Below are positions 1,964-17,946 of a stretch of DNA of 25,075 bases, one piece after another. Position numbers and translations under genes: made by a program. The notes under the pieces were generated by a model, which made no database searches, was not told where the DNA came from, and was given only the letters and a program-made list of their open reading frames with translations. Each line of letters starts with the position of its first letter. Position 1 is the stretch's first letter. Source of the stretch: a virus (Duplodnaviria > Caudoviricetes); the IMG/VR virus record IMGVR_UViG_3300035492_000019, positions 1 to 25,075 of that record. One strand, given 5' to 3'.

Positions 1964-2602
1964 TTATTTTAATTTATTATATTTCTTAATTACAACACGA
2001 TAGGCAATAGGAGCACGATTCTTACGTTCATTTTCCCAAGGTGCTTTATATCCGAAGATAAGCTCAATAAACCATTGATTACCCAAGTGAATCTGGCGCT
2101 GATAAATAAACCCCACCTGACCATAGGCGTTTTTGAATTTCTTGTATGTGATGTTAGGTACGCCCTTGTCCCAAAGAACATCTTGATCGTGAATCACTTC
2201 GGTTGTCATGCCGGTTTGATCATATCCAAGATCGCGGCCCAGTTTGTAAGCCGCATTACGGTACATCCAAAACACGCGTACAAGATAGCGCACAAAGGGG
2301 CTGGCGAGGTATTGTGCCTCGGTCATATTGGCAAAGGGCTTCCAGCCAAAGAATGACAACTGCTGCGTTCGCCCCGAGTACCAATGTGCATCAGCACAAT
2401 CGTCAAATGTGCCTGCCCACTCAAACGGAAAGTCGATGTGCTCACGCAACTTGCCGGGAAACTGACTTGGATAGCCTGTCACACGGGACTCTTCCTGCCG
2501 ATAGTAGAATAGGCAGAAGAACCAGCCGAAAAGCCATGTAGAGATTAATCCAGCTAAGGCCACCGGGACTTTTAAAAACCATTTTGAGGTTGCGAGTATC
2601 AT
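1964..2602 (-). CDS. Hypothetical membrane-associated protein in the tail fibre region
   Basis: 212 aa, Trp/Tyr/Phe-rich with N-terminal TM and WMYRNAAY motif; GC 50-55% in two counted 60-nt lines, above the AT-rich flanks. Confidence 0.7.
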   Translation of the reverse strand: MILATSKWFLKVPVALAGLISTWLFGWFFCLFYYRQEESRVTGYPSQFPGKLREHIDFPFEWAGTFDDCADAHWYSGRTQQLSFFGWKPFANMTEAQYLASPFVRYLVRVFWMYRNAAYKLGRDLGYDQTGMTTEVIHDQDVLWDKGVPNITYKKFKNAYGQVGFIYQRQIHLGNQWFIELIFGYKAPWENERKNRAPIAYRVVIKKYNKLK

Positions 2603-2733
2603 GGTTTTTCAGGCCATACGATAGTTTCAGAAGCACCTACAATTTCAATAATTCCTTTCTGTGTTTCCGTTGCAGAAGGGACGAGGTTAGCTGTGTTAAT
2701 ATCTTGTCCTAAATAATTTCTTGTATTAGGCAT
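2599..2733 (-). pseudogene. 44-aa chimeric remnant: tail fibre-like N-terminus fused to a fibre chaperone-like C-terminus
   Basis: Hand translation MPNTRNYLGQDINTANLVPSATETQKGIIEIVGASETIVWPEKP*; SD AAAGGA; TGA overlaps the next ATG (ATGA). Confidence 0.6.
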
Positions 2734-2752
2734 ATTTTATTCCTTTACTATT

Positions 2753-3313
2753 TTAGACAGAAGCGTCTGGAGCAACAGGACGTTTTGTACTGTCTGGGAA
2801 ATCAGGAGATTCTGGCCATGCACGTAATTCCTTACGATATGTACGCCAATCACCTACAGCACCAGTAGCATTGGGGTCGCTGTCCTGCACTTTGTTCAAT
2901 TCAATGTCTGCACGAGATAGTTCTCCATCACGCCACACACGCTCTTGTTGTGCCTTATCTTGGAAAATCTCTTCTTCTGTTGGAGGAGGGAGTTCTTTAG
3001 AAAGCCACTCAGGGGTTTCCCCAATCCCGTTATATTTCTTTCCTTCTTTTTCTTCCCCAATTTCATATTTCTCTTTCCCGAAGTACAATTCATCTTTACG
3101 ATGATCTTCTTTTATCTCCCATTGCCCTGTTCCTTCTTTTCCAAAAGAACGGTCTGTTTGTCGTGATAAATCTGTAATCCAGACAGCAACAAACCCTTCT
3201 TGGATTTGAGGAGGGGAAACAAACACTGCACCAAATGGTGTGCTGTATGTCTCTTGTTGATATAAACAGATGTTATTCTCGTCTGTTTGATATGAAATAA
3301 TTTTTTCTTTCAT
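2753..3313 (-). CDS. Tail fibre assembly chaperone
   Basis: GQWEIKEDHR and C-terminal ERVWRDGELSRAD...WRTYRKELRAWPESPDFP..KRPVAP, typical of Tfa/tail-assembly chaperones; downstream of the fibre. Confidence 0.85.
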   Translation of the reverse strand: MKEKIISYQTDENNICLYQQETYSTPFGAVFVSPPQIQEGFVAVWITDLSRQTDRSFGKEGTGQWEIKEDHRKDELYFGKEKYEIGEEKEGKKYNGIGETPEWLSKELPPPTEEEIFQDKAQQERVWRDGELSRADIELNKVQDSDPNATGAVGDWRTYRKELRAWPESPDFPDSTKRPVAPDASV

Positions 3314-3328
3314 GTAATTCCTTTTAAA

Positions 3329-4324
3329 TTAAAAAGACGTAGATAATAGATGCCTATTTATCTTCCCAAACTGTTTACGTCCAATTTCGCTGTTTGCTAA
3401 TTTCATTGTCAAATGTTTAACATCGGGATGATAATATCTTAAAAGCATACGTGTGTCTGAATGCCCTGTAATTTTAGCTAATTCGTGCATTTCATATACG
3501 GTTGCTAAACGACTTGTTGCCTCATGCCTTAAATCATGAAAGCGTAAATTAACAAGAAAATCATTATTCGCTGGGATGTTTTGTTTATTGCATTCACCTA
3601 GATATAATTTTCTTGCTTTTCTTATAGCTCTTATGAAACTTCTTGTAATTGCACTTTCAGAGACATCAAATAAATTCCCTGCCCGATTATTTAATGCAAT
3701 ATATTGAATTAAAGTGTAAGAAGCCCAAGGGGATAGGGGGATTGTTCTTGATTTTCCATTCTTTGTTTTTGGAATTAATATACATCCCTCATCGAAATTA
3801 ATATGCTCTCTTCGTAAATTAATAATCTCGCTTCTCCGCATTGCTGTTTCCACAGCTAAATTTATTATTGTTGGAAGATGTTTAGAATTTGTATTACGAA
3901 TTATCCATGTTAATTCGTCTGTTGGAATTTCTTTTCCTGCAACAAATAGGTTGTCAATAATCCGTCTTTCCCTAGCATCTTGAACGATTGGTTTTCTTAA
4001 TGTTTTAGAAGGATCATCAATATACAACATTCCCCAATCTTTTCTAGCAATTGTGAATAGGTGGCTCATTATTGCCAATCTTCTCACCACGGTTGATCCA
4101 GAGATTTCCTTAAGCCATTCATCTCTATAGCGAACAAGATCATGTTGGGTGATTGTGGAAATAGGTCTATTTGCAAGGGTTGTTGAGCACCACACTTTAG
4201 TGAGATGCTTGTCCGTCCCATCCCCGCCACGTTTCTTACTGCTTACATCTTTAAGATACCTCTCCAATGCTTGTTTAAGTGTTGGAGATTGTTGTTTCAA
4301 TCTTTGATTGCGCTTTTCAAACAT
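3329..4324 (-). CDS. Tyrosine recombinase, shufflon Rci-like DNA invertase
   Basis: Complete catalytic set: R (ETAMRRSE), K (PKTKNG), HxxR (FHDLRHEATSRL), H (ITGHSD), Y (LLRYYH); adjacent to inverted sites flanking alternative fibre tips. Confidence 0.92.
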   Translation of the reverse strand: MFEKRNQRLKQQSPTLKQALERYLKDVSSKKRGGDGTDKHLTKVWCSTTLANRPISTITQHDLVRYRDEWLKEISGSTVVRRLAIMSHLFTIARKDWGMLYIDDPSKTLRKPIVQDARERRIIDNLFVAGKEIPTDELTWIIRNTNSKHLPTIINLAVETAMRRSEIINLRREHINFDEGCILIPKTKNGKSRTIPLSPWASYTLIQYIALNNRAGNLFDVSESAITRSFIRAIRKARKLYLGECNKQNIPANNDFLVNLRFHDLRHEATSRLATVYEMHELAKITGHSDTRMLLRYYHPDVKHLTMKLANSEIGRKQFGKINRHLLSTSF

Positions 4325-4353
4325 AACATTTCCTAAAATAGAACGTGTTATGA

Positions 4354-4383
4354 ATTCTACACGTAATCATCCCTTCAAGTCAA
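4354..4383 (-). promoter_or_regulatory. Putative sigma70-type promoter for the recombinase
   Basis: TTGACT (4383-4378), 18-nt spacer, TAGAAT (4359-4354), about 30 nt upstream of ATG 4324; SD AGGA; lies outside the invertible segment. Confidence 0.55.
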
Positions 4384-4398
4384 CAAGTGTTCCTTTCT

Positions 4399-4417
4399 CT
4401 GCAAATGCGAGGGTGCT
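4399..4417 (+). repeat. Left inversion (crossover) site
   Basis: CTGCAAATGCGAGGGTGCT, 15/19 identical to the inverted copy at 4883-4865, with the first 9 bp identical. Confidence 0.8.
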
Positions 4418-4607
4418 GGGGTCGACTCAACAGGACGAACTGCGTGAACACAGCCACCGGGTGGACTCAGACAATCAACGAGCATTGCAAGTGAATGGGC
4501 TTGGGCTTTCTGTGCCGGGAACGTCACTGTCAAGTTCTACCGGAAGCCATGGTGGATCCGAGACACGACCGGTCAACGGCGCATTCAATCCCTTCATAAA
4601 TTTATGA
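4401..4607 (+). CDS. Silent alternative tail fibre C-terminal cassette (68 aa, no start codon of its own)
   Basis: ANARVLGSTQQD...SETRPVNGAFNPFINL* aligns with the fibre tip ANERALGSMQLD...AETRGSNTAFLPVINL*; same frame relative to the CTGCAAATG site. Confidence 0.88.
   Translation, partial: ANARVLGSTQQDELREHSHRVDSDNQRALQVNGLGLSVPGTSLSSSTGSHGGSETRPVNGAFNPFINL
4594..4607. repeat. 14-bp perfect palindrome encoding I-N-L-stop on both strands
   Basis: TCATAAATTTATGA reads ATA AAT TTA TGA in both directions and ends both cassettes. Confidence 0.95.
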
Positions 4608-5727
4608 CAGGCAGAAAAGCGGTGTTAGATCCCCTGGTCTCCGCGGACGTGCGCGTGGTTAGCGCATTATCGAAGTCGGCCACGTCGCCCGACGAAGAGC
4701 TACCAGAATCGCGGGTAATGGAGTTGGAAGCGACCGACGACGAATATGAGACAGCGAATGCTCCCGTACCTGATTGCAGCGCACCAGTGCCAATGCCAGC
4801 GGCTCCGCTACGGAAATAAATGCTGCCCTGCACGCGCTGCTGCGCGTCTAATTGCATGGAGCCAAGGGCCCTTTCATTTGCAGTGTCAGCGTCAGTCCCG
4901 GTAAACCGCAAGAACTGGTTCCGCATATCGGGTGCTCTCCAATCACCGCCGCCAAGATCAGCAATTTTGTACTCACCAGCAACCCACGACCCAATTGGTG
5001 TTTCCAAACCACTTTCCCTGAATCTAGCAATAAGTCCACCATGGTCTACTTCATTGAGAACACCACCTATAGCTTCCACTTGCCAAGGAAGGGGTGTTGG
5101 TGTCCATCCAAACTCTAGTTTGCCCGAATTCAGAGAGCGATACCCTGTAAAATATGGAGTAGCCACCCACTCCCAGAAAGAGTTCATTTCTCTTACGTAA
5201 ATTGTCCCAACATTGGTTGTAGGGATATTATTAAATTCATAGATTCTGACAAAATCAGATGGATTTACAATCAGACCATCCACCTCTGTTTTTGAGTAAA
5301 CACCAATATTTGTTCTGAATACCGATGCGTCATCTATGTCTGCACCATTTGACAAAACTTTCAAATAAAGTGTATCGGATTGTTGGGGGTCTAAGAAAGC
5401 CAATGTCCAATATGTTTTTGAAACATCTGTTGTGGGGTCTTGTGTAGTTGTTGAAGGCCCACTAGCTGCAACACTTTTATAAATATTTCCATCAGAGCCT
5501 TGCACATAAGCTGCTGCTGCATCGTATGTCGTAAGAGCATCCCAAACAGGAACGCCCTTCTGATTGATGTGTGCCAACATCTGGTCTTGTCGATATTGAG
5601 CAAAGTTTTCCCACTGGTGCGGAGGAATCTCCGCAATCCATCCTTGTTGAATCTTAGAAGATGAGGGTGTAACTCTCGCCCCACCACTTGCCCAAAGATG
5701 TGTTAAATCTGGTTTTGAAATAGCCAT
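4594..5727 (-). CDS. Tail fibre protein with a variable C-terminus
   Basis: N-terminal baseplate-anchor WASGG...KIQQGW..EIPPHQWEN; collar-like RAPDMRNQFLR; GS.QLDA and ETR..N.A tip motifs; follows the baseplate wedge genes. Confidence 0.9.
   Translation of the reverse strand: MAISKPDLTHLWASGGARVTPSSSKIQQGWIAEIPPHQWENFAQYRQDQMLAHINQKGVPVWDALTTYDAAAAYVQGSDGNIYKSVAASGPSTTTQDPTTDVSKTYWTLAFLDPQQSDTLYLKVLSNGADIDDASVFRTNIGVYSKTEVDGLIVNPSDFVRIYEFNNIPTTNVGTIYVREMNSFWEWVATPYFTGYRSLNSGKLEFGWTPTPLPWQVEAIGGVLNEVDHGGLIARFRESGLETPIGSWVAGEYKIADLGGGDWRAPDMRNQFLRFTGTDADTANERALGSMQLDAQQRVQGSIYFRSGAAGIGTGALQSGTGAFAVSYSSSVASNSITRDSGSSSSGDVADFDNALTTRTSAETRGSNTAFLPVINL
4865..4883 (-). repeat. Right inversion (crossover) site inside the tail fibre CDS
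   Basis: Minus strand CTGCAAATGAAAGGGCCCT, encoding T-A-N-E-R-A-L. Confidence 0.8.
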
Positions 5728-5757
5728 TTAATTTCCTTTTTATTATATGACATTGTT

Positions 5758-6522
5758 TTATAATAGATAAGCGTATGTACCACCATCCACTCCTGTATCA
5801 TTAATTGGATCATAATCACCAAAACCACCTGCTCCTGCCACCCCGAGGTATGCAAATGGGAGTGTGGCATTAGATACCCCAAATCCATAATTAACGCCTA
5901 GGGCTTTAGGTACAAAATATGATCTGTAGCGGTCTTCTACAAAATAACGAAGTAATGCAAAACCAAAAGGCCCAATATCATCACTCACCATAATGAAAGG
6001 AGCATTTGCTTCCTCATCTGTTAAAATCTGAACGCGAGAGACACCAAATACAAATTGAATAAAATAAATAACTTGCTCCGGTGTTGGGTTTACAATGTTC
6101 TTTAGAATTTTTGCTTTAATGAATATTCTGTATTGTTCATCATTAAGAAGGATATTACCTGTTAATGATTTGTTAATATCCCAATAATATCCACCAACAC
6201 TATCATCTGTAAGACTCCCATAACTCTGAGCTTCGAATGCACCTTCATACCCAAAATAAGGAATAAATGAGCTATCAATCAATTCTCTTGGTTGTCCAAC
6301 AATATCACCAATAATATCCAACTGCTTACCAATCGCTGTATCAATACTGCGTTCTTGCATCAGTTGTCGTAACACTTCTTGCACTTCAATAGGAGAGCCA
6401 GAAAGAAGTTGCAGATATTTATCGAAGACAGGAGCATCTTCAAAAGCAAATGTCACTCTCTGACGTAAATCATCAAGATAATCTTTATTTTCAAAAGGAA
6501 TAACTTCTAATATTGCAGCCAT
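5758..6522 (-). CDS. Baseplate wedge subunit (DUF2612-like)
   Basis: IDTAIGKQLDIIGDIVGQPR and LNDEQYRIFIKAKI motifs; follows baseplate J; second ATG chosen for SD spacing. Confidence 0.8.
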   Translation of the reverse strand: MAAILEVIPFENKDYLDDLRQRVTFAFEDAPVFDKYLQLLSGSPIEVQEVLRQLMQERSIDTAIGKQLDIIGDIVGQPRELIDSSFIPYFGYEGAFEAQSYGSLTDDSVGGYYWDINKSLTGNILLNDEQYRIFIKAKILKNIVNPTPEQVIYFIQFVFGVSRVQILTDEEANAPFIMVSDDIGPFGFALLRYFVEDRYRSYFVPKALGVNYGFGVSNATLPFAYLGVAGAGGFGDYDPINDTGVDGGTYAYLL

Positions 6523-6532
6523 CATTCCTCCA

Positions 6533-7978
6533 TTATGAAATTGTTATATTAATATTTGCTGAGTCAAGAGAAGCAATTTCATTATAAGCCATTGTAATAT
6601 TTGATGTTCCAGTTGGAGAAGGAGATAACCCAATAGTCAAGCTATCAATTTGGTGTCCTTGAATTGTATTGATTGGTGTATATAGACGACTGTAAACTAC
6701 AGTTTCTCCAATACTGAAATTGTTTTCAAAGTATTCAATCAATGCTGCTTTAATTTTTTCAACACCATTAGCAGGGAAATCATCAATATTTGTTGTCAGA
6801 GTTATATCAATATAAATAGGGATATTAATGGGTCTTTCAAAAAATATATCTCTTGTAAATCCTTGACTGTCTGTTACCGGGGTTGATGTATTACCTCTTG
6901 AAGCAATACCTAGTGGTTTGTTTATCCAAATAGTTTTTCCAATTTCAATTGGGTTTCCACCAAGAATGATTGGTTTAAAACTATGTGGTGTTAAATCATA
7001 GACAGGATCATATGTTGCAGTTTCATTTTCATAAACACGAACATATTGAACACCATCTAATGCCACAAGAGAAGAATACAAAGCATCCGAAATATTTTGA
7101 GCACGTAGAAATTTACTTTCTCTAAATCTAAAACGTAGTGCATCATCGGTTTCTTGATATCTGCCTGTGATCGCTGGGAAAGGATTATTAACACTATCCC
7201 ACCCGAGAATTGGAGTGGCAATTGAATTAATGCTATTTGCGGGTTGTTCAATCACTCCTGTTTCTTGACAAACAACTTCTGTCTTTCCTTTTATTTTGTT
7301 TGTTGAAAGATTGGAAACTGTAAATCCGAAATAATCATTAATATCAACAGATTCTACAGTCAGTGAATTACCATTAACCACTGCCGTAAAAGATGGATAT
7401 AGTGAAAAACCACTTTGTAATCCTTCCAAAACTTGAACAAAAGTGTCTCCGCTTAGTGCTGTATATGACACTGTAAACGTTGTTTGGTCGTTTGTAATAA
7501 TTATTGAATACGTTGTTCCAACAACTACAGAACTTGTTTTTACAGAGAATCCTATGCAACGATCAGATGTTAATTCTGTGCTAACTAATACATCATATAA
7601 ATTATTATCATTTGATCGTACAACTGAAGTGACTGCTGGAATAAAAGTATTCTGATCACCCCATAAAACAACAGTTGCTTGTGTTGGAGAAGCTGGCTCT
7701 CTTGTTAAACCACCAAGGGCAACTAAATTATCAAGAGCAATTCCAGTAGCACTATTTGGATCAAAAGCAAAATAAACTTGTTGTGTTGCTTCCCAAAGAT
7801 CAGCAATTGGTCTGGAAAGAAGTGCTGTTAATCTGCCAATTGTGCTGGAATTTGATGTATCAATAACATCACCGGGAGGCACAAGGTCTTGAAAAATAGG
7901 CTGTGCATCAGCCCTCATATCTTCTACAACTTGTGTTAATCTTTTTATTTCAATACCGTTCTCATTTAACCCCGCCAT
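6533..7978 (-). CDS. Baseplate J-like wedge protein
   Basis: FDPNSATGIALDNL..L.GLTR, G...ETDDALRFR and VRVYEN motifs. Confidence 0.9.
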   Translation of the reverse strand: MAGLNENGIEIKRLTQVVEDMRADAQPIFQDLVPPGDVIDTSNSSTIGRLTALLSRPIADLWEATQQVYFAFDPNSATGIALDNLVALGGLTREPASPTQATVVLWGDQNTFIPAVTSVVRSNDNNLYDVLVSTELTSDRCIGFSVKTSSVVVGTTYSIIITNDQTTFTVSYTALSGDTFVQVLEGLQSGFSLYPSFTAVVNGNSLTVESVDINDYFGFTVSNLSTNKIKGKTEVVCQETGVIEQPANSINSIATPILGWDSVNNPFPAITGRYQETDDALRFRFRESKFLRAQNISDALYSSLVALDGVQYVRVYENETATYDPVYDLTPHSFKPIILGGNPIEIGKTIWINKPLGIASRGNTSTPVTDSQGFTRDIFFERPINIPIYIDITLTTNIDDFPANGVEKIKAALIEYFENNFSIGETVVYSRLYTPINTIQGHQIDSLTIGLSPSPTGTSNITMAYNEIASLDSANINITIS

Positions 7979-8451: not shown

Positions 8452-9447
8452 TTAGCTTCCAAACGGGTCTGTTCTATCTCCTCCAGAAACCACCCCACCG
8501 TGATACGACTTTTTATGTTTTACATACAGTGATTCAATTTCATTGTATAAGGATGAAATTTCACCAACAGAGCAAGTTTCTGTATATCCATCAGGCATAT
8601 CTATTCTCTCTATCGCCTTACCGAACTTAGACCTTATTATTGACTCATGGTCTCTACATATAAGTCCATCTTCGTAGAACCAGTCTAAAATTGGAATAAA
8701 AGTTAATCCTTTATTGTTAATATGCAGATTGGATAGTCTTTTGGATTTTACATTTGATATACCAAATTTAAAACCAATCTCTTCTCCTTGTTTAACCACT
8801 TTCAACACATAAAGGTGTGAACTTCTAAGAGGGTTAAAACCAAGTCTGGCACAATTAGGGCAAGAATATTTTCCACTCAAAACATTAGCCATATGAGATT
8901 TCCACACATTATCACACACCTCACATTTCAACCTAACCCAAGATGACGCTCTTATTTTATCTGTTGTTTGAGAGTGAAACCTGAATTTATTTTGTTTACC
9001 AATGATGTTTATTCTTTCTATATACTCCTGATCTGTATATCTCTTTTGACCAGCACAACAAGGACACCCTCTCGCTATCTTACCGCAGAAATATGAAAAA
9101 GAAACATCCCACCTATGTAAGCAAGTTCTACATTCAACCGTGAATTTATCTCCTGAAGAGTTCAATTTGAGATTATCTTCAATGGGAAATATTCCCTTAA
9201 TCTCCGCAACTTCTTTCACCCTTTCAGCCTTTCTTTCGGGTGATTTGTAATAATTTCTTCCGCACTTACAAGGTTTCTGTCCAATAAATATCTTAGATGG
9301 GCTAGTGTGTGTTTCTGCAAGACATGTTTTACACTTAATCAGAATTTTGTGATCTATAGAAGACCCGCTATCCTTCAAAATTAAATAATTAGAACCAAAC
9401 TCATTGGCTCCCTTGCTGTTTGGAAATTTATCGAATAAAGTTATCAT
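8452..9447 (-). CDS. Free-standing putative homing endonuclease (repeated CxxC zinc ribbons plus GIY-YIG/T5orf172-like C-terminal domain)
   Basis: Three Cys-rich units (CKTC..CKC, CRTC..CPCC, CEVC..CPNC), then HLYVLKV..FKFGIS...RL and DGYTET; interrupts the baseplate operon; ATGA overlap with the spike stop. Confidence 0.75.
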   Translation of the reverse strand: MITLFDKFPNSKGANEFGSNYLILKDSGSSIDHKILIKCKTCLAETHTSPSKIFIGQKPCKCGRNYYKSPERKAERVKEVAEIKGIFPIEDNLKLNSSGDKFTVECRTCLHRWDVSFSYFCGKIARGCPCCAGQKRYTDQEYIERINIIGKQNKFRFHSQTTDKIRASSWVRLKCEVCDNVWKSHMANVLSGKYSCPNCARLGFNPLRSSHLYVLKVVKQGEEIGFKFGISNVKSKRLSNLHINNKGLTFIPILDWFYEDGLICRDHESIIRSKFGKAIERIDMPDGYTETCSVGEISSLYNEIESLYVKHKKSYHGGVVSGGDRTDPFGS

Positions 9448-12289: not shown

Positions 12290-13540
12290 TCAGAAATTAT
12301 AAAATGTATTTGGAAAAGTAGGCAGCATTGTACCCATTATTCTGTTTGTTGCTTCACTAATAGCATCGTGAGTTGCAGATTTTAAAGATTCCAAGTCTAT
12401 ATTTGACCCAACATCCCCGTATTTTATCTGGAAATTATTATAAACAACCATTGAATTACCCGGCATTCCTTTCACCATATTTACAGTGCTGGAAGGTATT
12501 TCATTGTTACTCATATTAGGAAGTAGTGGGCTTTTCCAAGACAGGGGGGTAGGAGTATAAGAAACCGGGTTTTGAATTTCTGGTTTTGTAAAATATGATC
12601 TTATACCATCTCCTATATATTTTCCCCAATTTTCAGGATTCCAAGGAGAGTTGTTAATATCTTCTAAAGAATTACTACCAATGGGCATACCAAACCAAGA
12701 AGCGTTGTTTCCTGATTGTTTCACTCTGTTGGATTCCATCTGTTGATAAAGCTCTTGAGTCCTATTTTTAATTTGCTCTCTTGGAACCTTAACACCTGTT
12801 CTTTGATAGGTAGACTCTGCCTCTTTTTCTGCTTGTGTTCTAGCTTTACCCATTGTTTCAATTTGAGCATTTCGTTCAACGAGAGCTTTAACACCGCCTT
12901 CATTATATGCTTGAGCTAAAGAGAACAAATTTCCCAAATCTCTCAGTAAGGGTTCAACAAAATCAGTTAAAAGACTGAATTCTTTTTTTAGATTTTTAAC
13001 AGATTTTGTGCTTTCATCCATTGAAGATGTTATATAAGATTTAATTTGTGAAAATGTTGTTTTAATTGTTGATAAAAATTCATTTTCACTTGATTTCCCA
13101 AATAATGCTGTTAGGAAATTACCTTTCTTTTCTGCACCAGAAAACCAATCAGAGATTTCTTTTGGTGCAAGCATAACTGCTGATAAATATAAAGAAGCTT
13201 TATAAAAAGCATTACCAAGATAATCTGCTGTATTTTTTGAATCTTTCATTAATTGTGCCCATGTATCAAAGAATGTTTTAACACCTTGAACACCACCAGC
13301 ACTCATGAAATTTTTAAAGAAATCTTCATTTCCTTTTGCTGCTCTACCACGACTCGCTTGAATTGATTCAAAGAAAGCACCAAGAAAAGGCTCTGCTCTT
13401 TTACCAAGTTCTTCGAAGAATAATGGAAGATACTTAAAAGCATCAACTTGTCCTGCTTTCATCATTTTTTCAAGTTTTGCTCTATCACCACCTGCTGCCA
13501 CCTTAGCCATAATATTTACGGCTTCCGGCATACCTTGCTC
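12290..13540 (-). CDS. Tape measure protein, exon 3 (416 aa)
   Basis: Begins GAG CAA GGT ATG CCG (EQGMPEAVNIMA) right after the terminal G of intron 2 and continues the tape-measure domain (KLEKMMKAGQV). Confidence 0.88.
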   Translation of the reverse strand, partial: EQGMPEAVNIMAKVAAGGDRAKLEKMMKAGQVDAFKYLPLFFEELGKRAEPFLGAFFESIQASRGRAAKGNEDFFKNFMSAGGVQGVKTFFDTWAQLMKDSKNTADYLGNAFYKASLYLSAVMLAPKEISDWFSGAEKKGNFLTALFGKSSENEFLSTIKTTFSQIKSYITSSMDESTKSVKNLKKEFSLLTDFVEPLLRDLGNLFSLAQAYNEGGVKALVERNAQIETMGKARTQAEKEAESTYQRTGVKVPREQIKNRTQELYQQMESNRVKQSGNNASWFGMPIGSNSLEDINNSPWNPENWGKYIGDGIRSYFTKPEIQNPVSYTPTPLSWKSPLLPNMSNNEIPSSTVNMVKGMPGNSMVVYNNFQIKYGDVGSNIDLESLKSATHDAISEATNRIMGTMLPTFPNTFYNF

Positions 13541-13783
13541 CAAAATTGTTCAAGATAGGTCGTTACTCTATCTCCGTAGAAAAATCTACTGCTCATAGTC
13601 GCCTATGAGTTCGGACTATATCTTATGTAATATTATTACATCTCCCCGCTTCGACCCACTTGGGTCTACTCCTATAAAAGGATAGTCTCTACACGTTCTA
13701 AATACAATATTTAGCTTCGCTCGGTATTACCTGCTTGAGGCTTCCACCGAATTCAAGGAGTTTTATAGTTGACCTAGCAATTA
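13541..13783 (-). ncRNA. Group I intron 2 of the tape measure gene (243 nt, no ORF, IA2-like)
   Basis: P1 GUUGGCU|...GGUCAAC with U.G at the splice site; P AAUUCGGUGGAA (13753-13742); R GUAGAGACUA (13692-13683); S AAGAUAUAGUCC (13624-13613); terminal G; P10 UUGCU/AGCAA; removal restores the frame. Confidence 0.92.
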
Positions 13784-13843
13784 AGCCAACTGCTGTCGCA
13801 ACTCTTCAGACTGAACTTTTCCCTTAGAAATCATTTGACTTAT
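13784..13843 (-). CDS. Tape measure protein, exon 2 (60 nt, 20 aa)
   Basis: ISQMISKGKVQSEELRQQLA, the conserved tape-measure motif QM.sKGkv..EEL.QQL; too short for the ORF track. Confidence 0.92.
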
Positions 13844-14882
13844 CTTTGTGTTCCCCACTGGTCGTTAATCAGTGGGCGTGTAAAAACACTGCTTTATATT
13901 TCTATAAAGAACGGACTATATCATCATCTCTTGTTTAGAGATGCGGGATTTTCAACCGCACTTGCGGTTTACGAGTAATACTCTAGTCTCTGACCCTTCC
14001 AACAAACTACAAGGTTTAAAAATATTCTTTAGATAACCACGCCCAAGTTTTCTTGGACTTGATGGATTTAATCAATGATGGTGTTATTGAATTCGAATTT
14101 GCCATCTTGACAATATCGCGATTTCTGTAACCTTCTTTGATTTTATTACATATCCATCTTGCTGTAACTTCAGATATTGATCTTTTTGAAATTACTAAAT
14201 CATATTGTGATGATACTTCTGTCCAAGTATTACCACGCCTTATATGTTTAACTGTGTCAATAGTTACACTAAGCTTTTCAGAAATTTCCTTATTTCTCAA
14301 TCCATCTTGGATTAATTTGCAAATTTCAATAGCTTGTTCTTTAGTTATCTCTGCCCTACAATTCTTTTTCCTATAAGGATCGAATTGTAAAGATTTTTCT
14401 ACATTCTCTTTTTCTGTAACCCATTCAAGATTTTCAACCCTGTTGTCATCCCTAACATGATTTATGTGATTAACAACGGGCTTGTTGTCAGGATTTGGTA
14501 TAAAAGTTTCTGCAACCAGACGATTAACTCTTTTGTGATGATATTTCAAACCATCCCACAAGTTGACCACCATATATCCATCCTGATTAATTTGAAGTTT
14601 TAATTTCTTCCCTTTTGTATTAAAAACTTCACCTTGCGTATTTACAAAATAATTGAAACCTTCTATTTGTTTTAACATAACTACCTCCTACTAAATTTTC
14701 GTGAGTAGTTTGTTGGAGTGGGTGCGGATTTTCCAATGTCTACAACTTTTTACCATACCTTGCGCATTACCGCAAGCCGCGTTTACTTTACAATAAATGT
14801 TTGGTATTGTAGACCTCTAAGGATGTTCCCGCAATTAACCCCGTTTTCATATAACATCACTGTTATATGGGCCTGTAAATTA
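13844..14882 (-). mobile_element. Group I intron 1 of the tape measure gene (1039 nt) encoding an HNH endonuclease
   Basis: P1 GGGCU|...GGCCC; P AAUUGCGGGAA (14836-14826); Q AAUCCGCA; R UCAGAGACUA (13993-13984); S GAUAUAGUCC (13922-13913); P3 CGGGGUU/AAUCCCG; terminal G at 13844; ORF enclosed by a 13-bp stem. Confidence 0.92.
14016..14678 (-). CDS. Intron-encoded HNH homing endonuclease (I-HmuI-like, NUMOD4-HNH)
   Basis: YFVNTQGEV, DGYMVVNL and RLVAETFIPNPDNKPVVNHINHVRDDNRVENLEWVT..EN; two tandem C-terminal helical repeats; SD AGGAGG. Confidence 0.92.
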   Translation of the reverse strand: MLKQIEGFNYFVNTQGEVFNTKGKKLKLQINQDGYMVVNLWDGLKYHHKRVNRLVAETFIPNPDNKPVVNHINHVRDDNRVENLEWVTEKENVEKSLQFDPYRKKNCRAEITKEQAIEICKLIQDGLRNKEISEKLSVTIDTVKHIRRGNTWTEVSSQYDLVISKRSISEVTARWICNKIKEGYRNRDIVKMANSNSITPSLIKSIKSKKTWAWLSKEYF

Positions 14883-15749
14883 AGCCCTAATACTCCCTTT
14901 GAGCTGTTCATCTCCAAGCCCCATAACAGAAGCATAATTCATTAGAGATGTAAACCCTGATTGTAAGGTTGGTTCCATACTTGTACCACGAGCACCAGCA
15001 TACATCTGAGCATAGTATGGTGCCATTGTTGATGTTTTTCTACCAAGAACATCACCAAGGTTGCTTAAAAACTTCATCTGTTCTTTAGCAACTTGAGGAC
15101 TGCCCATAGCAGTATTCATCATAATTTGTTGATTCTGAAGCATTGCTGCATTATTTGCTAGTGTATTCAAGCCCATAGCACCAGCAACACCGGGAAGAGC
15201 AAACATTCCAAATCTAAGAAAACTACCCGGCAATCCAGAAAATATAAAAGGATTAATTCTACCAGAAGATTTTCTTTCTCTTGATCTTTCACGCATAGCT
15301 GGATATCTTCCAGATGCAGCATGGATTCTTGGATTAATATTTGGCCTGATTATTATATTTGATAAACCAGCACGTATCTGTTCTCTCATAGCCATAATAC
15401 TGTCTCTAGACAACCTAGCACCAATACGAGCACCTGTCCTACCTGTTGTTCCTAGGTGTCCTCCCATTGCTTGTGTAAGAGCTTTATTAACCGCATCTTT
15501 ATTAAAAGAAACTTTACCTATTCTAAGAGTTGAGGTTTGCCCTGCCACTAATAGGGATTGTTTTAAAAGCCTATTAAGTGTGGCCTGATTTATCCTAAAT
15601 TCAAGTTGCAAAGCTCTTGTTCTACCAACTTTTGATTGGAAATCTCGTAGCTGCTTTTCAATTTTGTTTAAATATGCATCTACTGTCTTTAAAGACGAGT
15701 TATCGACGCCCACGCCTACTTTGGCATAGTAGCTACTAATCATTGTCAT
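14883..15749 (-). CDS. Tape measure protein, exon 1 (289 aa; spliced product 725 aa)
   Basis: Follows the tail chaperones; ends ...GLGDEQLKGSIRA and joins in frame to ISQMISKG; the apparent TAA is the first triplet of the intron. Confidence 0.88.
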
Positions 15750-16356: not shown

Positions 16357-16809
16357 TTAAAATATTGAATTAAATAAACTTAAAACTCCCCACCCTTCTC
16401 CATTTGTGAAAGATGAAGATAAACACTCTATTGTCCAACCTCTTGTTGAAATATCTGGCTCATAACCTATATCAGGATGAGAACTAATATATCCCTCTAT
16501 TGTATTAAAAACCTCTGTACCAAACGTATCTTTTATTGATATTTCCAATCTTCCTGTACCAAACTTCTCATCTTGGTCTAAAATATTCCTAAACAATTGA
16601 TTGCTTTCACTTGTTGAAGTGAGAACAACCTCAATTGTTGCAGAAGTATCTGGATTTTTTATTCGTGTATTTTTACCGCGAATCCCCCTCACCATTTTAT
16701 AAGAAGGAGAATTTCTTTTTATAGTTATTCTATCCCAACCAGACAGTGTAGCACCACCCATTGTAAATACAACATCTGAAGGAGAATATGTTGTTACGTT
16801 AAATGACAT
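16357..16809 (-). CDS. Tail tube-like structural protein (paralogue 3)
   Basis: TYSPSDV, TSESNQ and IKDTFG motifs shared with the two upstream genes. Confidence 0.75.
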   Translation of the reverse strand: MSFNVTTYSPSDVVFTMGGATLSGWDRITIKRNSPSYKMVRGIRGKNTRIKNPDTSATIEVVLTSTSESNQLFRNILDQDEKFGTGRLEISIKDTFGTEVFNTIEGYISSHPDIGYEPDISTRGWTIECLSSSFTNGEGWGVLSLFNSIF

Positions 16810-16819
16810 TCATTTCTCC

Positions 16820-17326
16820 TTAAAACAACCTAGACAATCCCGGAGCCAATCCGAGAGCACCATTGAGGAAATCTTCTCCGACAGACGATGCGGATTCATT
16901 ACCACCAAGATTAAACGTAGCTTGTGAACATTTAATCACCCACTCCCTTGTTTCAATTGATGTTGAAAAAGAAGAATCAGGCATTGTTTCAATCCACGAT
17001 GTTAAAGAGAAAAATAATGTAGAACCAAGATTATCTTTAACAAGAAACGGAAATTTACCCATCTGTGTCAATTCATCCAGTTTAGACATATAAGACAGTA
17101 TTTGATTACTTTCGGATGCTTGATGAAGTGTAAGAGAAAGATTATAAACTTGGCTATTTTTATATGTTCTTGATATAGCTCCATCAGAAGATTCTCTAGT
17201 TGTATAAACAGGATTTGCTTTAGAAATTGATAAGAATGTTCCATCAGCAAACCCGGATAGGTTATGAAACCCACCAAGTAATACAGAAACATCCTCTGGT
17301 GAATAATGTGCTAATATATTGCTCAT
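16820..17326 (-). CDS. Tail tube-like structural protein (paralogue 2)
   Basis: HYSPEDV, GFADGTF, LTLHQASESN and REWVIKC motifs. Confidence 0.78.
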   Translation of the reverse strand: MSNILAHYSPEDVSVLLGGFHNLSGFADGTFLSISKANPVYTTRESSDGAISRTYKNSQVYNLSLTLHQASESNQILSYMSKLDELTQMGKFPFLVKDNLGSTLFFSLTSWIETMPDSSFSTSIETREWVIKCSQATFNLGGNESASSVGEDFLNGALGLAPGLSRLF

Positions 17327-17352
17327 CAATTATTCCTTTGGATGAAAAAGAG

Positions 17353-17385
17353 AAAAATAAAGGGAGAATGCCGAAACATTCTCCC
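17353..17385 (-). terminator. Rho-independent terminator after the major tail tube gene
   Basis: GGGAGAAUG-UUUCGG-CAUUCUCCC followed by UUUAUUUUU. Confidence 0.88.
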
Positions 17386-17412
17386 AATATAATCTTTCTT
17401 TAAATTCTAATG

Positions 17413-17946
17413 TTAAGCATTAGGATTCCAGAAAGTGTCAGAATTATAACCAAGATCGGTTACAGTTGAATAAGTATCGCCGGTGAATTTACCATTACCA
17501 CCAATGTGCTGTGTCATATTGATTGCACGAATCACCCAAGCACGTTCTGCAATATCAGTACCCAGACTCGTATCTGGTGTGGTACCAATATAAGCAACCG
17601 GGGTTGACATCACGGTTCTACCTGAAGTGTCTTTAATTGTCATATAAAAACAATCACTACCATCCCTTGATTCTTCATCTAGTGCAAGCAGTTGAGAAAA
17701 GACATCATTAGATTCACTTGATTGGTGCAGGGTGAGTGTCACATCGCAATTCTTAATTGAACGTACAACACGAGCATTTGTACCATCAGCACCATTATAG
17801 TGTGTTGCATGGTCAACATTCCGTGCCACGCTGATAAACGTGCCATCTGCATAGCCAGAGACAATGTGAGAAAACTTATCATTACCAACAGTAATAACAA
17901 CACTCTCTGGGCTATAGGTTCCTAAAATATTACTAACTGGAGCCAT
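17413..17946 (-). CDS. Major tail tube protein (DUF3277-like)
   Basis: Follows the sheath and precedes a terminator; TYSPESV, GYADGTFI, LTLHQSSESND and IKDTSG motifs. Confidence 0.85.
   Translation of the reverse strand: MAPVSNILGTYSPESVVITVGNDKFSHIVSGYADGTFISVARNVDHATHYNGADGTNARVVRSIKNCDVTLTLHQSSESNDVFSQLLALDEESRDGSDCFYMTIKDTSGRTVMSTPVAYIGTTPDTSLGTDIAERAWVIRAINMTQHIGGNGKFTGDTYSTVTDLGYNSDTFWNPNA

Follow-up and report, generated by a model that had tools for sequence, protein, structure and literature searches.

A two-tip tail-fibre switch, likely run by an adjacent tyrosine recombinase, in a probably lytic myovirus

The 25,075-base viral contig analysed here in its whole length (the window; IMG/VR virus record IMGVR_UViG_3300035492_000019) bears the head, tail and lysis genes of a myovirus on its minus strand, among them a tail fibre gene (4594..5727, minus strand) whose 3' end lies within a short segment bounded by inverted copies of a 9-bp sequence, CTGCAAATG, and adjoined by a gene for a tyrosine recombinase (3329..4324, minus strand). 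We think it quite likely that this recombinase inverts the 485-bp segment 4399-4883 between the two sites and thereby replaces the fibre tip of 95 amino acids (aa) with another of 68 aa, probably changing the receptor that is bound. That a fibre tip switch is run by the adjacent tyrosine recombinase, as the original prediction for this DNA had proposed, appears well supported, since relatives show natural flips at this very site.

In its present orientation the fibre open reading frame has 377 aa (PHROG 2282 tail fibre, E 9e-39; residues 7-151 match the short tail fibre of PDB 9zd7), and is composed of a constant part (aa 1-282; 4882..5727, minus strand) and the expressed tip A (95 aa and a stop; 4594..4881, minus strand). 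One copy of CTGCAAATG lies inside the gene at 4875..4883 (minus strand) and the second, inverted, at 4399..4407 (plus strand), just as had been predicted. Reading inward on the plus strand, the frame from 4401 runs through a start-less cassette of 68 aa, the silent tip B (4401..4607), to a TGA at 4605-4607; this cassette, also foreseen, carries an HxH motif and matches the tail-collar fibre PHROGs 523, 6459, 1858 and 327. Inversion would join tip B to the 282-aa constant part and give a fibre of 350 aa in place of 377, which agrees, in lengths, with the change that had been anticipated. The likeness that the two tips were said to have at both ends is weak by BLASTP and lies in the C-terminal 16 aa (E 2e-4), while the common N-terminal motif is discernible by eye only. 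Both tip ends share a 14-bp palindrome (4594..4607, both strands), encoding I-N-L-stop on each strand, a detail absent from the original prediction.

Natural flips and the crossover site

Relatives in the opposite orientation, which had been named as a test of the switch, do occur: a flip at the site distinguishes the two members in each of six near-identical pairs. In L320/L321 a 452-bp segment bounded by the 9-mers is 100% identical but reversed, with flanks of 99.97% and 99.8% identity, and the further pairs are L308/L285 (453 bp), L331/L283 (864 bp), L302/L321 (950 bp), L276/L303 (450 bp) and L319/L304 (552 bp). In these five pairs the tip expressed in one member sits inverted behind the 9-mer in its partner, the upstream DNA being 98.7-100% identical, and L019/L020 show the same tip inversion at 94-97% identity. 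A wastewater relative (run X3, ~85-90% identical) departs from the window sequence precisely at the two sites (behind 4407 and before 4875), continuing into other tips, and so confirms that they bound the module.

These relatives were gathered from two directions. Scans of viral contigs, metagenomes and genomes with recombinase alignments gave at least 239 loci, in which tips were detected with a hidden Markov model built from 39 seed tips. Among the matches listed, tips adjoin 30 of the 38 recombinase loci scoring at least 260 bits and two of the 201 below, both of the latter being partial or split matches of 48-56% identity; the metagenome scan, covering 4 of 64 parts, yielded no tip-linked locus. 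The named carriers among the matches listed, Corticimicrobacter, Bordetella, Achromobacter and Castellaniella, all belong to the Alcaligenaceae, and the host of the window phage is probably also a member of this family. Searching in reverse, from the 22-base site on the constant side, brought up at least 81 viral stretches; where at least 3.5 kb downstream was available (n=34, many of these being contigs already in the first recombinase set), the recombinase was present in 31 and the inverted site in 33. Contigs end within 10 bases past the site in 8 of 81 stretches and within 10 bases before it in none of the 81, as expected where both orientations coexist in one sample. Loci with an expressed fibre (n=30) hold two tips in 11 cases and three to nine in the others, so that the two-tip form of the window is the commonest rather than a rare one; in ten of the two-tip loci the tip starts are separated by 405-542 bp, in the eleventh by 823 bp. 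The four-tip L308 and the two-tip L285, which are 99%-identical phages, differ by the flip and also by a ~0.8-kb block bounded by same-direction sites, a change by which large and minimal arrays are probably interconverted; L020 and L278 retain long runs of direct sites, yet L285 is without the block. No cultured phage with similar DNA over 4300-5300 was found, and a capsid search in five switch-bearing records, all incomplete, gave no match. Altogether there appears to be a Burkholderiales-phage family with one common site; no description of this switch family or of a lytic carrier was found in the literature, subscription journals lying mostly outside the search.

The site itself can be delimited from the relatives. 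A 31-bp matrix built from 90 of their silent sites, with the window excluded, gives the two window sites 37.8 and 29.0 bits, the silent site being the top-scoring place in the window and the next best position reaching 2.9. The comparison of tip starts covered 122 of them in 35 loci, counting the window and leaving out five duplicate loci and an unrelated hit: the exact 9-mer stands at 104, and most of the remaining ones have a locus-wide variant. The Ala codon of the site is GCA in 113 of 121 cases as against 233 of 1031 elsewhere in the tips, and the Asn codon is AAT in 119 of 121 as against 199 of 478; judged from this codon choice, the constraint on the site acts at the level of DNA. According to the junctions of the flip pairs, the crossover falls within the 9-mer or the one base that follows it. 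Among the 29 loci with at least two sites, CTGCAAA is uniform within 28 (the exception being one duplicated site), spacer positions -2 and +2 differ between loci and are the same within them (28 of 29), and mismatches occur at position -3 in 8 loci and at +7 in 9. Such uniformity within loci, together with the mismatches at -3 and +7, suggests that the spacer is 7 bp long, with CA and TG on its two sides, and that the outer arm varies; the right-hand limit of the spacer is based on three loci only, and in the window the spacer is predicted at 4883-4877 and 4399-4405. Strand exchange would take place across this spacer. In five loci (L003, L005, L006, L017 and L303) a back-to-back double site stands between divergent tips, its two 9-mers 16 bases apart around a central palindromic 4-mer, with one short spacer as the outer arm for both. 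L343 carries at 1838-2310 two full constant-side 22-mers, inverted, around one tip, which could be an assembly artefact of mixed orientations.

The recombinase and comparable systems

An intact tyrosine recombinase had been reported 75 bp from the left site, and the gene holds up on inspection: it encodes 331 aa with PF00589 and no arm domain, starts 75 bases from 4399, and retains R163, K188, H263, R266, H288 and Y297, of which R163, H263, R266 and Y297 are invariant and H288 nearly so among 38 homologues. The structural model (predicted local distance difference test, pLDDT, 89.9) has an integrase fold of core-binding and catalytic parts, followed by a C-terminal tail of two helices. Upstream lies a sigma-70-like promoter match (4354..4383, minus strand), outside the invertible segment; it is a consensus match only, and such matches number 10 in the region as against 6.7 +/- 2.5 by chance. 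The best matches among cultured phages (36-38%) are annotated as integrases. A one-protein search with the window enzyme in viral contigs gave no relative, alignments being needed. The closest recombinases (P0003-P0011) are 55-84% identical, and named protein relatives include those of Oligella and Pusillimonas.

In a tree of 98 rows, from which seven near-duplicates had been dropped and for which distant loci were sampled one in six, all 30 tip-linked rows fall into one clade (Shimodaira-Hasegawa-like approximate likelihood ratio test, SH-aLRT, 98). This clade, which also holds 11 proteins without context and three loci ending less than 0.8 kb past the gene, is nested among integrases neighbouring restriction and defence genes. 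The sister island integrases have ~45 extra N-terminal residues and a 13-aa tail; most of the tip-linked enzymes are without this extension and have tails of 28-56 aa, one of 15 aa. The window enzyme would then descend from genomic-island integrases by loss of ~45 N-terminal residues and gain of a short helical tail. The sole relative with the gene order of the window (fibre, spare tip and recombinase in line) is L024 (1966-4079), whose enzyme, with the 15-aa tail, is the deepest branch of the tip-linked clade.

The description of the enzyme as 'Rci-like' stands in a loose sense, in that it shares 35% identity with Rci over 310 columns (the alignment stopping at residue 309), the catalytic R-H-R-H/Y residues and a site layout with a 7-bp core. 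Only 34 residues follow its catalytic Tyr, against 113 in the IncI1 Rci (L270), and the approximately unbiased (AU) test rejects a clade with Rci (p-AU 0.013; 40 rows, with a single, long-branched Rci). With the tail domain missing, the lineage separate and the common clade rejected, the enzyme seems to work like Rci but is not one.

The novelty implied by the original prediction was overstated, since the principle was published in 2018 for Bifidobacterium prophages, whose Rin shufflon enzyme was presented as the first tyrosine invertase known from a phage, in a paper that also shows a ~500-bp two-state inversion (PMC6109161), and since the sub-550-bp two-tip form is the commonest within the present family; tyrosine-recombinase switching of receptor-binding tips is likewise found in Eggerthella prophages (PMC8778435). 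The likeness to Rin is one of system layout. In both, an armless tyrosine recombinase (here PF00589 without N-terminal extension) stands beside a receptor-binding gene with a constant N-terminus and start-less C-terminal cassettes (here 2-9 tips in the 30 loci), each behind a short, asymmetric, in-frame site (here the exact 9-mer before 104 of 122 cassettes); the Rin systems have cassettes of 95-100 aa, a separate integrase and inversions seen between genomes (PMC6109161). Here inversions are seen in the six pairs of relatives, and a second tyrosine recombinase in three of four proviruses with the switch, the genome of the window phage being incomplete. Rin is found in temperate phages of actinobacteria, its rix site is 11 bp long and differs in sequence, and its cassettes are TP901-1-like (PMC6109161), whereas the present switch has a tail-collar-type myovirus fibre, Burkholderiales-linked phages, a 9-bp site and a likely lytic backbone.

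R64/IncI1 Rci belongs to the same broad recombinase group and likewise serves arrays with direct and inverted sites. Its sfx site has the form 12+7+12 with a variable left arm (PMC11852207), and the phage site resembles it in the 7-bp core, the conserved inner side and the variable outer arm; it differs in sequence, as the system does in acting on a phage fibre rather than PilV and in the lack of a long C-terminal domain. Kinship of the two sites in sequence was considered and rejected, because the phage-site matrix scores unrelated places above the seven sfx copies of L270 (ranks 50-313 of 15,616), and the likeness is one by eye only. In the supplement of the same study the site arm of one reporter keeps the annotation 'tail fiber protein', although the main text, in the part available, is without phages (PMC11852207). 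Fibre-like genes may thus be targets of a true Rci homologue as well.

Gin and Cin act on multi-kb segments, and tail-fibre inversion in the halovirus phiCh1 reportedly changes adhesion specificity by means of a tyrosine recombinase, although this archaeal temperate virus is said to differ from the present case in its larger segment and repeat clusters. As with Gin, Cin, Min and the FR-phi Gin shufflon, inversion here would swap the C-terminus of a tail fibre; the window enzyme, unlike these, is of the tyrosine family. Mu Gin, P1 Cin and p15B Min are serine invertases of temperate phages (PMC6109161), and in the FR-phi Gin shufflon just one of three tips infects the host tested (bioRxiv 10.1101/2025.07.22.666180). 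The dusA-associated and related island integrases are described as the closest relatives of Rci, without its long tail (PMC4482086). The tipless sister loci here adjoin restriction and defence genes; dusA is absent among the 35 window proteins scanned, and the neighbours of the recombinase are tail genes. Milman et al. list tail-fibre genes as targets of programmed inversion and DUF2612 as an enriched neighbour (PMC9881135), and a DUF2612 gene adjoins the window fibre gene. crAss002 (PMC8042965) and Pf-5 (PMC2647930) were set aside, as they concern host inversions or an integrase and not a phage switch.

The carrier phage and its other genes

The capsid protein is closest to those of 76-95-kb phages of Limnohabitans, Curvibacter and Pseudomonas, including KPP10 (38-42%), and these phages have a lytic habit. 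Kinship in the gene upstream of the fibre defined 29 viral contigs as backbone relatives, ~20 of which cover the fibre-to-lysis interval: recombinase, mid-fibre and tips are found in none of the 29, PF00589 in none of ten near-complete ones (of the 85-93-kb type) and PF07508 in none of five. The earlier remark that the gene order resembles that of virulent phages thus receives indirect support from the capsid kin and from these backbone relatives. As the backbone relatives are 47-62% identical in the marker and most of the genome is missing, a lytic habit of the window phage is only likely.

The fibre is a mosaic, in which aa 1-150 are of a Pakpunavirus-like backbone type (N-terminus 44-58% to backbone relatives) and aa 151-282 of the switch-family type, with identities of up to 72-75% to switch-bearing viral contigs and matches in all 94 loci tested. 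A tail fibre assembly chaperone (2753..3313, minus strand; PF16778), with relatives in 26 of the 94 switch loci, is parted from the fibre by the silent tip and the recombinase. The GC content at third codon positions (GC3) is 0.58 in tip A and 0.51 in tip B, 0.26 in the recombinase and 0.16-0.21 in baseplate genes; the tips are thus GC-rich within an AT-rich genome. On the simplest reading of these sequences, a lytic-type backbone would have acquired the module from host prophages and later changed its tips, the module of mid-fibre, tips, recombinase and chaperone having passed from Burkholderiales prophages to a probably lytic myovirus. Between the chaperone and the endolysin lies a DUF7338 gene (1964-2602, minus strand), whose GC3 of 0.49 is unlike that of its neighbours and which has a relative in the switch locus L009 and in none of the 29 backbone relatives; it may have arrived together with the switch module.

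Elsewhere in the window the tape-measure gene (14880-15749 and 12290-13549) is interrupted at 13550-14879 (minus strand) by two group I intron matches to Rfam RF00028 (13592-13817, 54.8 bits; 13892-14098, 29.3 bits), both missed by a whole-window scan at gathering threshold. Inside the upstream intron is an HNH/NUMOD4 endonuclease (14016-14678), and the two introns are separated, near 13783-13842, by a short exon of ~20 codons that is in frame. A second, free-standing endonuclease gene (8452-9447, minus strand; PHROG 681/559) stands between baseplate spike and wedge genes, and three tandem PHROG 280 paralogues (16357-17946, minus strand) belong to a KPP10 Orf10-like tail tube family.

Weighing the explanations, and what the switch means

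Several observations limit the case for a switch that works in the window phage and alters its receptor. CTGCAAATG occurs just twice in the window (chance mean 0.45), and at least two copies arose in 8 of 100 shuffles; the inverted pair is not among the 25 longest of 641 inverted pairs given by general repeat finding over 2500-7000. The 9-mer pair alone is therefore not beyond chance and the case rests on the relatives, whose flip pairs are assemblies, some perhaps from one study series, and so not fully independent. The silent site of the window has T instead of the usual A at -3, although sites with bases other than A at this position did take part in flips among relatives. For the window phage, whose locus is near-identical in two tar-pit metagenomes (public runs), one of them probably its source, no strand-changing joint was found in the contigs of four runs: run X2 spans the right site in the window orientation only, and in the likely source run the whole locus lies in a single contig. 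Since contig assemblies drop rare forms and run X2 is without cover across the left site, the missing flipped form is no evidence of absence. In the fibre model, residues 126-220 have pLDDT below 50 and the tip gives no fold match at E <= 0.001, T4 needle tips surfacing only at E 0.7-1.7; receptor binding accordingly rests on knowledge of tail-collar fibres and on a weak match to PDB 9cuy (E 6e-4).

The missing flipped form would also suit a frozen or rarely used remnant of a prophage switch, which came with the captured fibre into a lytic phage affording too little time or enzyme for flipping. A compost relative (run X4; window 3174-3496 and 4593-4620), in which the fibre end seems to be joined to only the 3' part of the recombinase, with the spare tip missing, hints weakly at such decay, the joint being one contig with a 28-base side, and L282 has the site without the second site or the recombinase. 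In the window, by contrast, the reading frames of recombinase and spare tip are intact over their full length, no place scores higher than the silent site, and a full-length recombinase of 84% identity exists in another assembly; the codon use of the recombinase is backbone-like, that of the tips is not, which suggests long residence with tip turnover. We accordingly regard decay as distinctly unlikely. That the enzyme is a phage integrase acting on an attP/attB pair, with the inverted 9-mer incidental, could be argued from the annotation of its cultured-phage matches, from its nesting among island integrases and from the mere 25 kb of genome available; this seems highly improbable when the clade is tied to tip arrays and mostly lacks the ~45-aa extension of the island integrases, when flips map to the site, and when, in three of four proviruses carrying the switch, another tyrosine recombinase is encoded elsewhere, a point against an integrase role. 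Equally far-fetched is an exchange of tips by homologous recombination or a host enzyme through the conserved tip ends, with the recombinase a bystander: the ends are indeed alike in protein sequence, and phage inversion without an adjacent recombinase exists (PMC6109161), but the identity of the two window sites spans just 9 bp, the site is fixed also at synonymous positions and in its non-coding bases, and the enzyme is present in 31 of the 34 long loci.

Inversion by the adjacent recombinase is thus the reading we prefer, with host switching as its probable consequence through the receptor bound. A bolder version, which we hold to be rather unlikely, is that a strictly lytic phage uses the family-wide site as a socket, flipping tips within one infection cycle while its recombinase imports tips from resident prophages via both sites. 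The sameness of the 9-mer across the family, the GC-rich tips in an AT-rich genome and the complete difference in tips between close relatives, with limits precisely at the sites (run X3; L021/L022), all fit it; recombination between homologous flanks would leave identical traces, so that import from prophages is only consistent with the data.

The principle being already known, what appears undescribed is the enzyme lineage and its likely non-integrating, lytic carrier; together with the mapped site they add an apparently new tail-fibre switch family with one common site in at least 81 viral stretches. As pipelines label such enzymes 'integrase', a lytic phage would be wrongly marked temperate and its spare tips missed; likewise, breaks of draft assemblies at the site often leave these prophages with incomplete host-range genes in databases. 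Runs of same-direction sites are kept although the enzyme has no Rci tail domain, which makes it a compact system for testing how deletion is avoided by tyrosine invertases, and it is also a candidate for use as a new invertase in synthetic shufflons. Should the carrier be truly lytic, switching must happen within a single infection, and a mismatch between phenotype and genotype in the progeny becomes directly testable.

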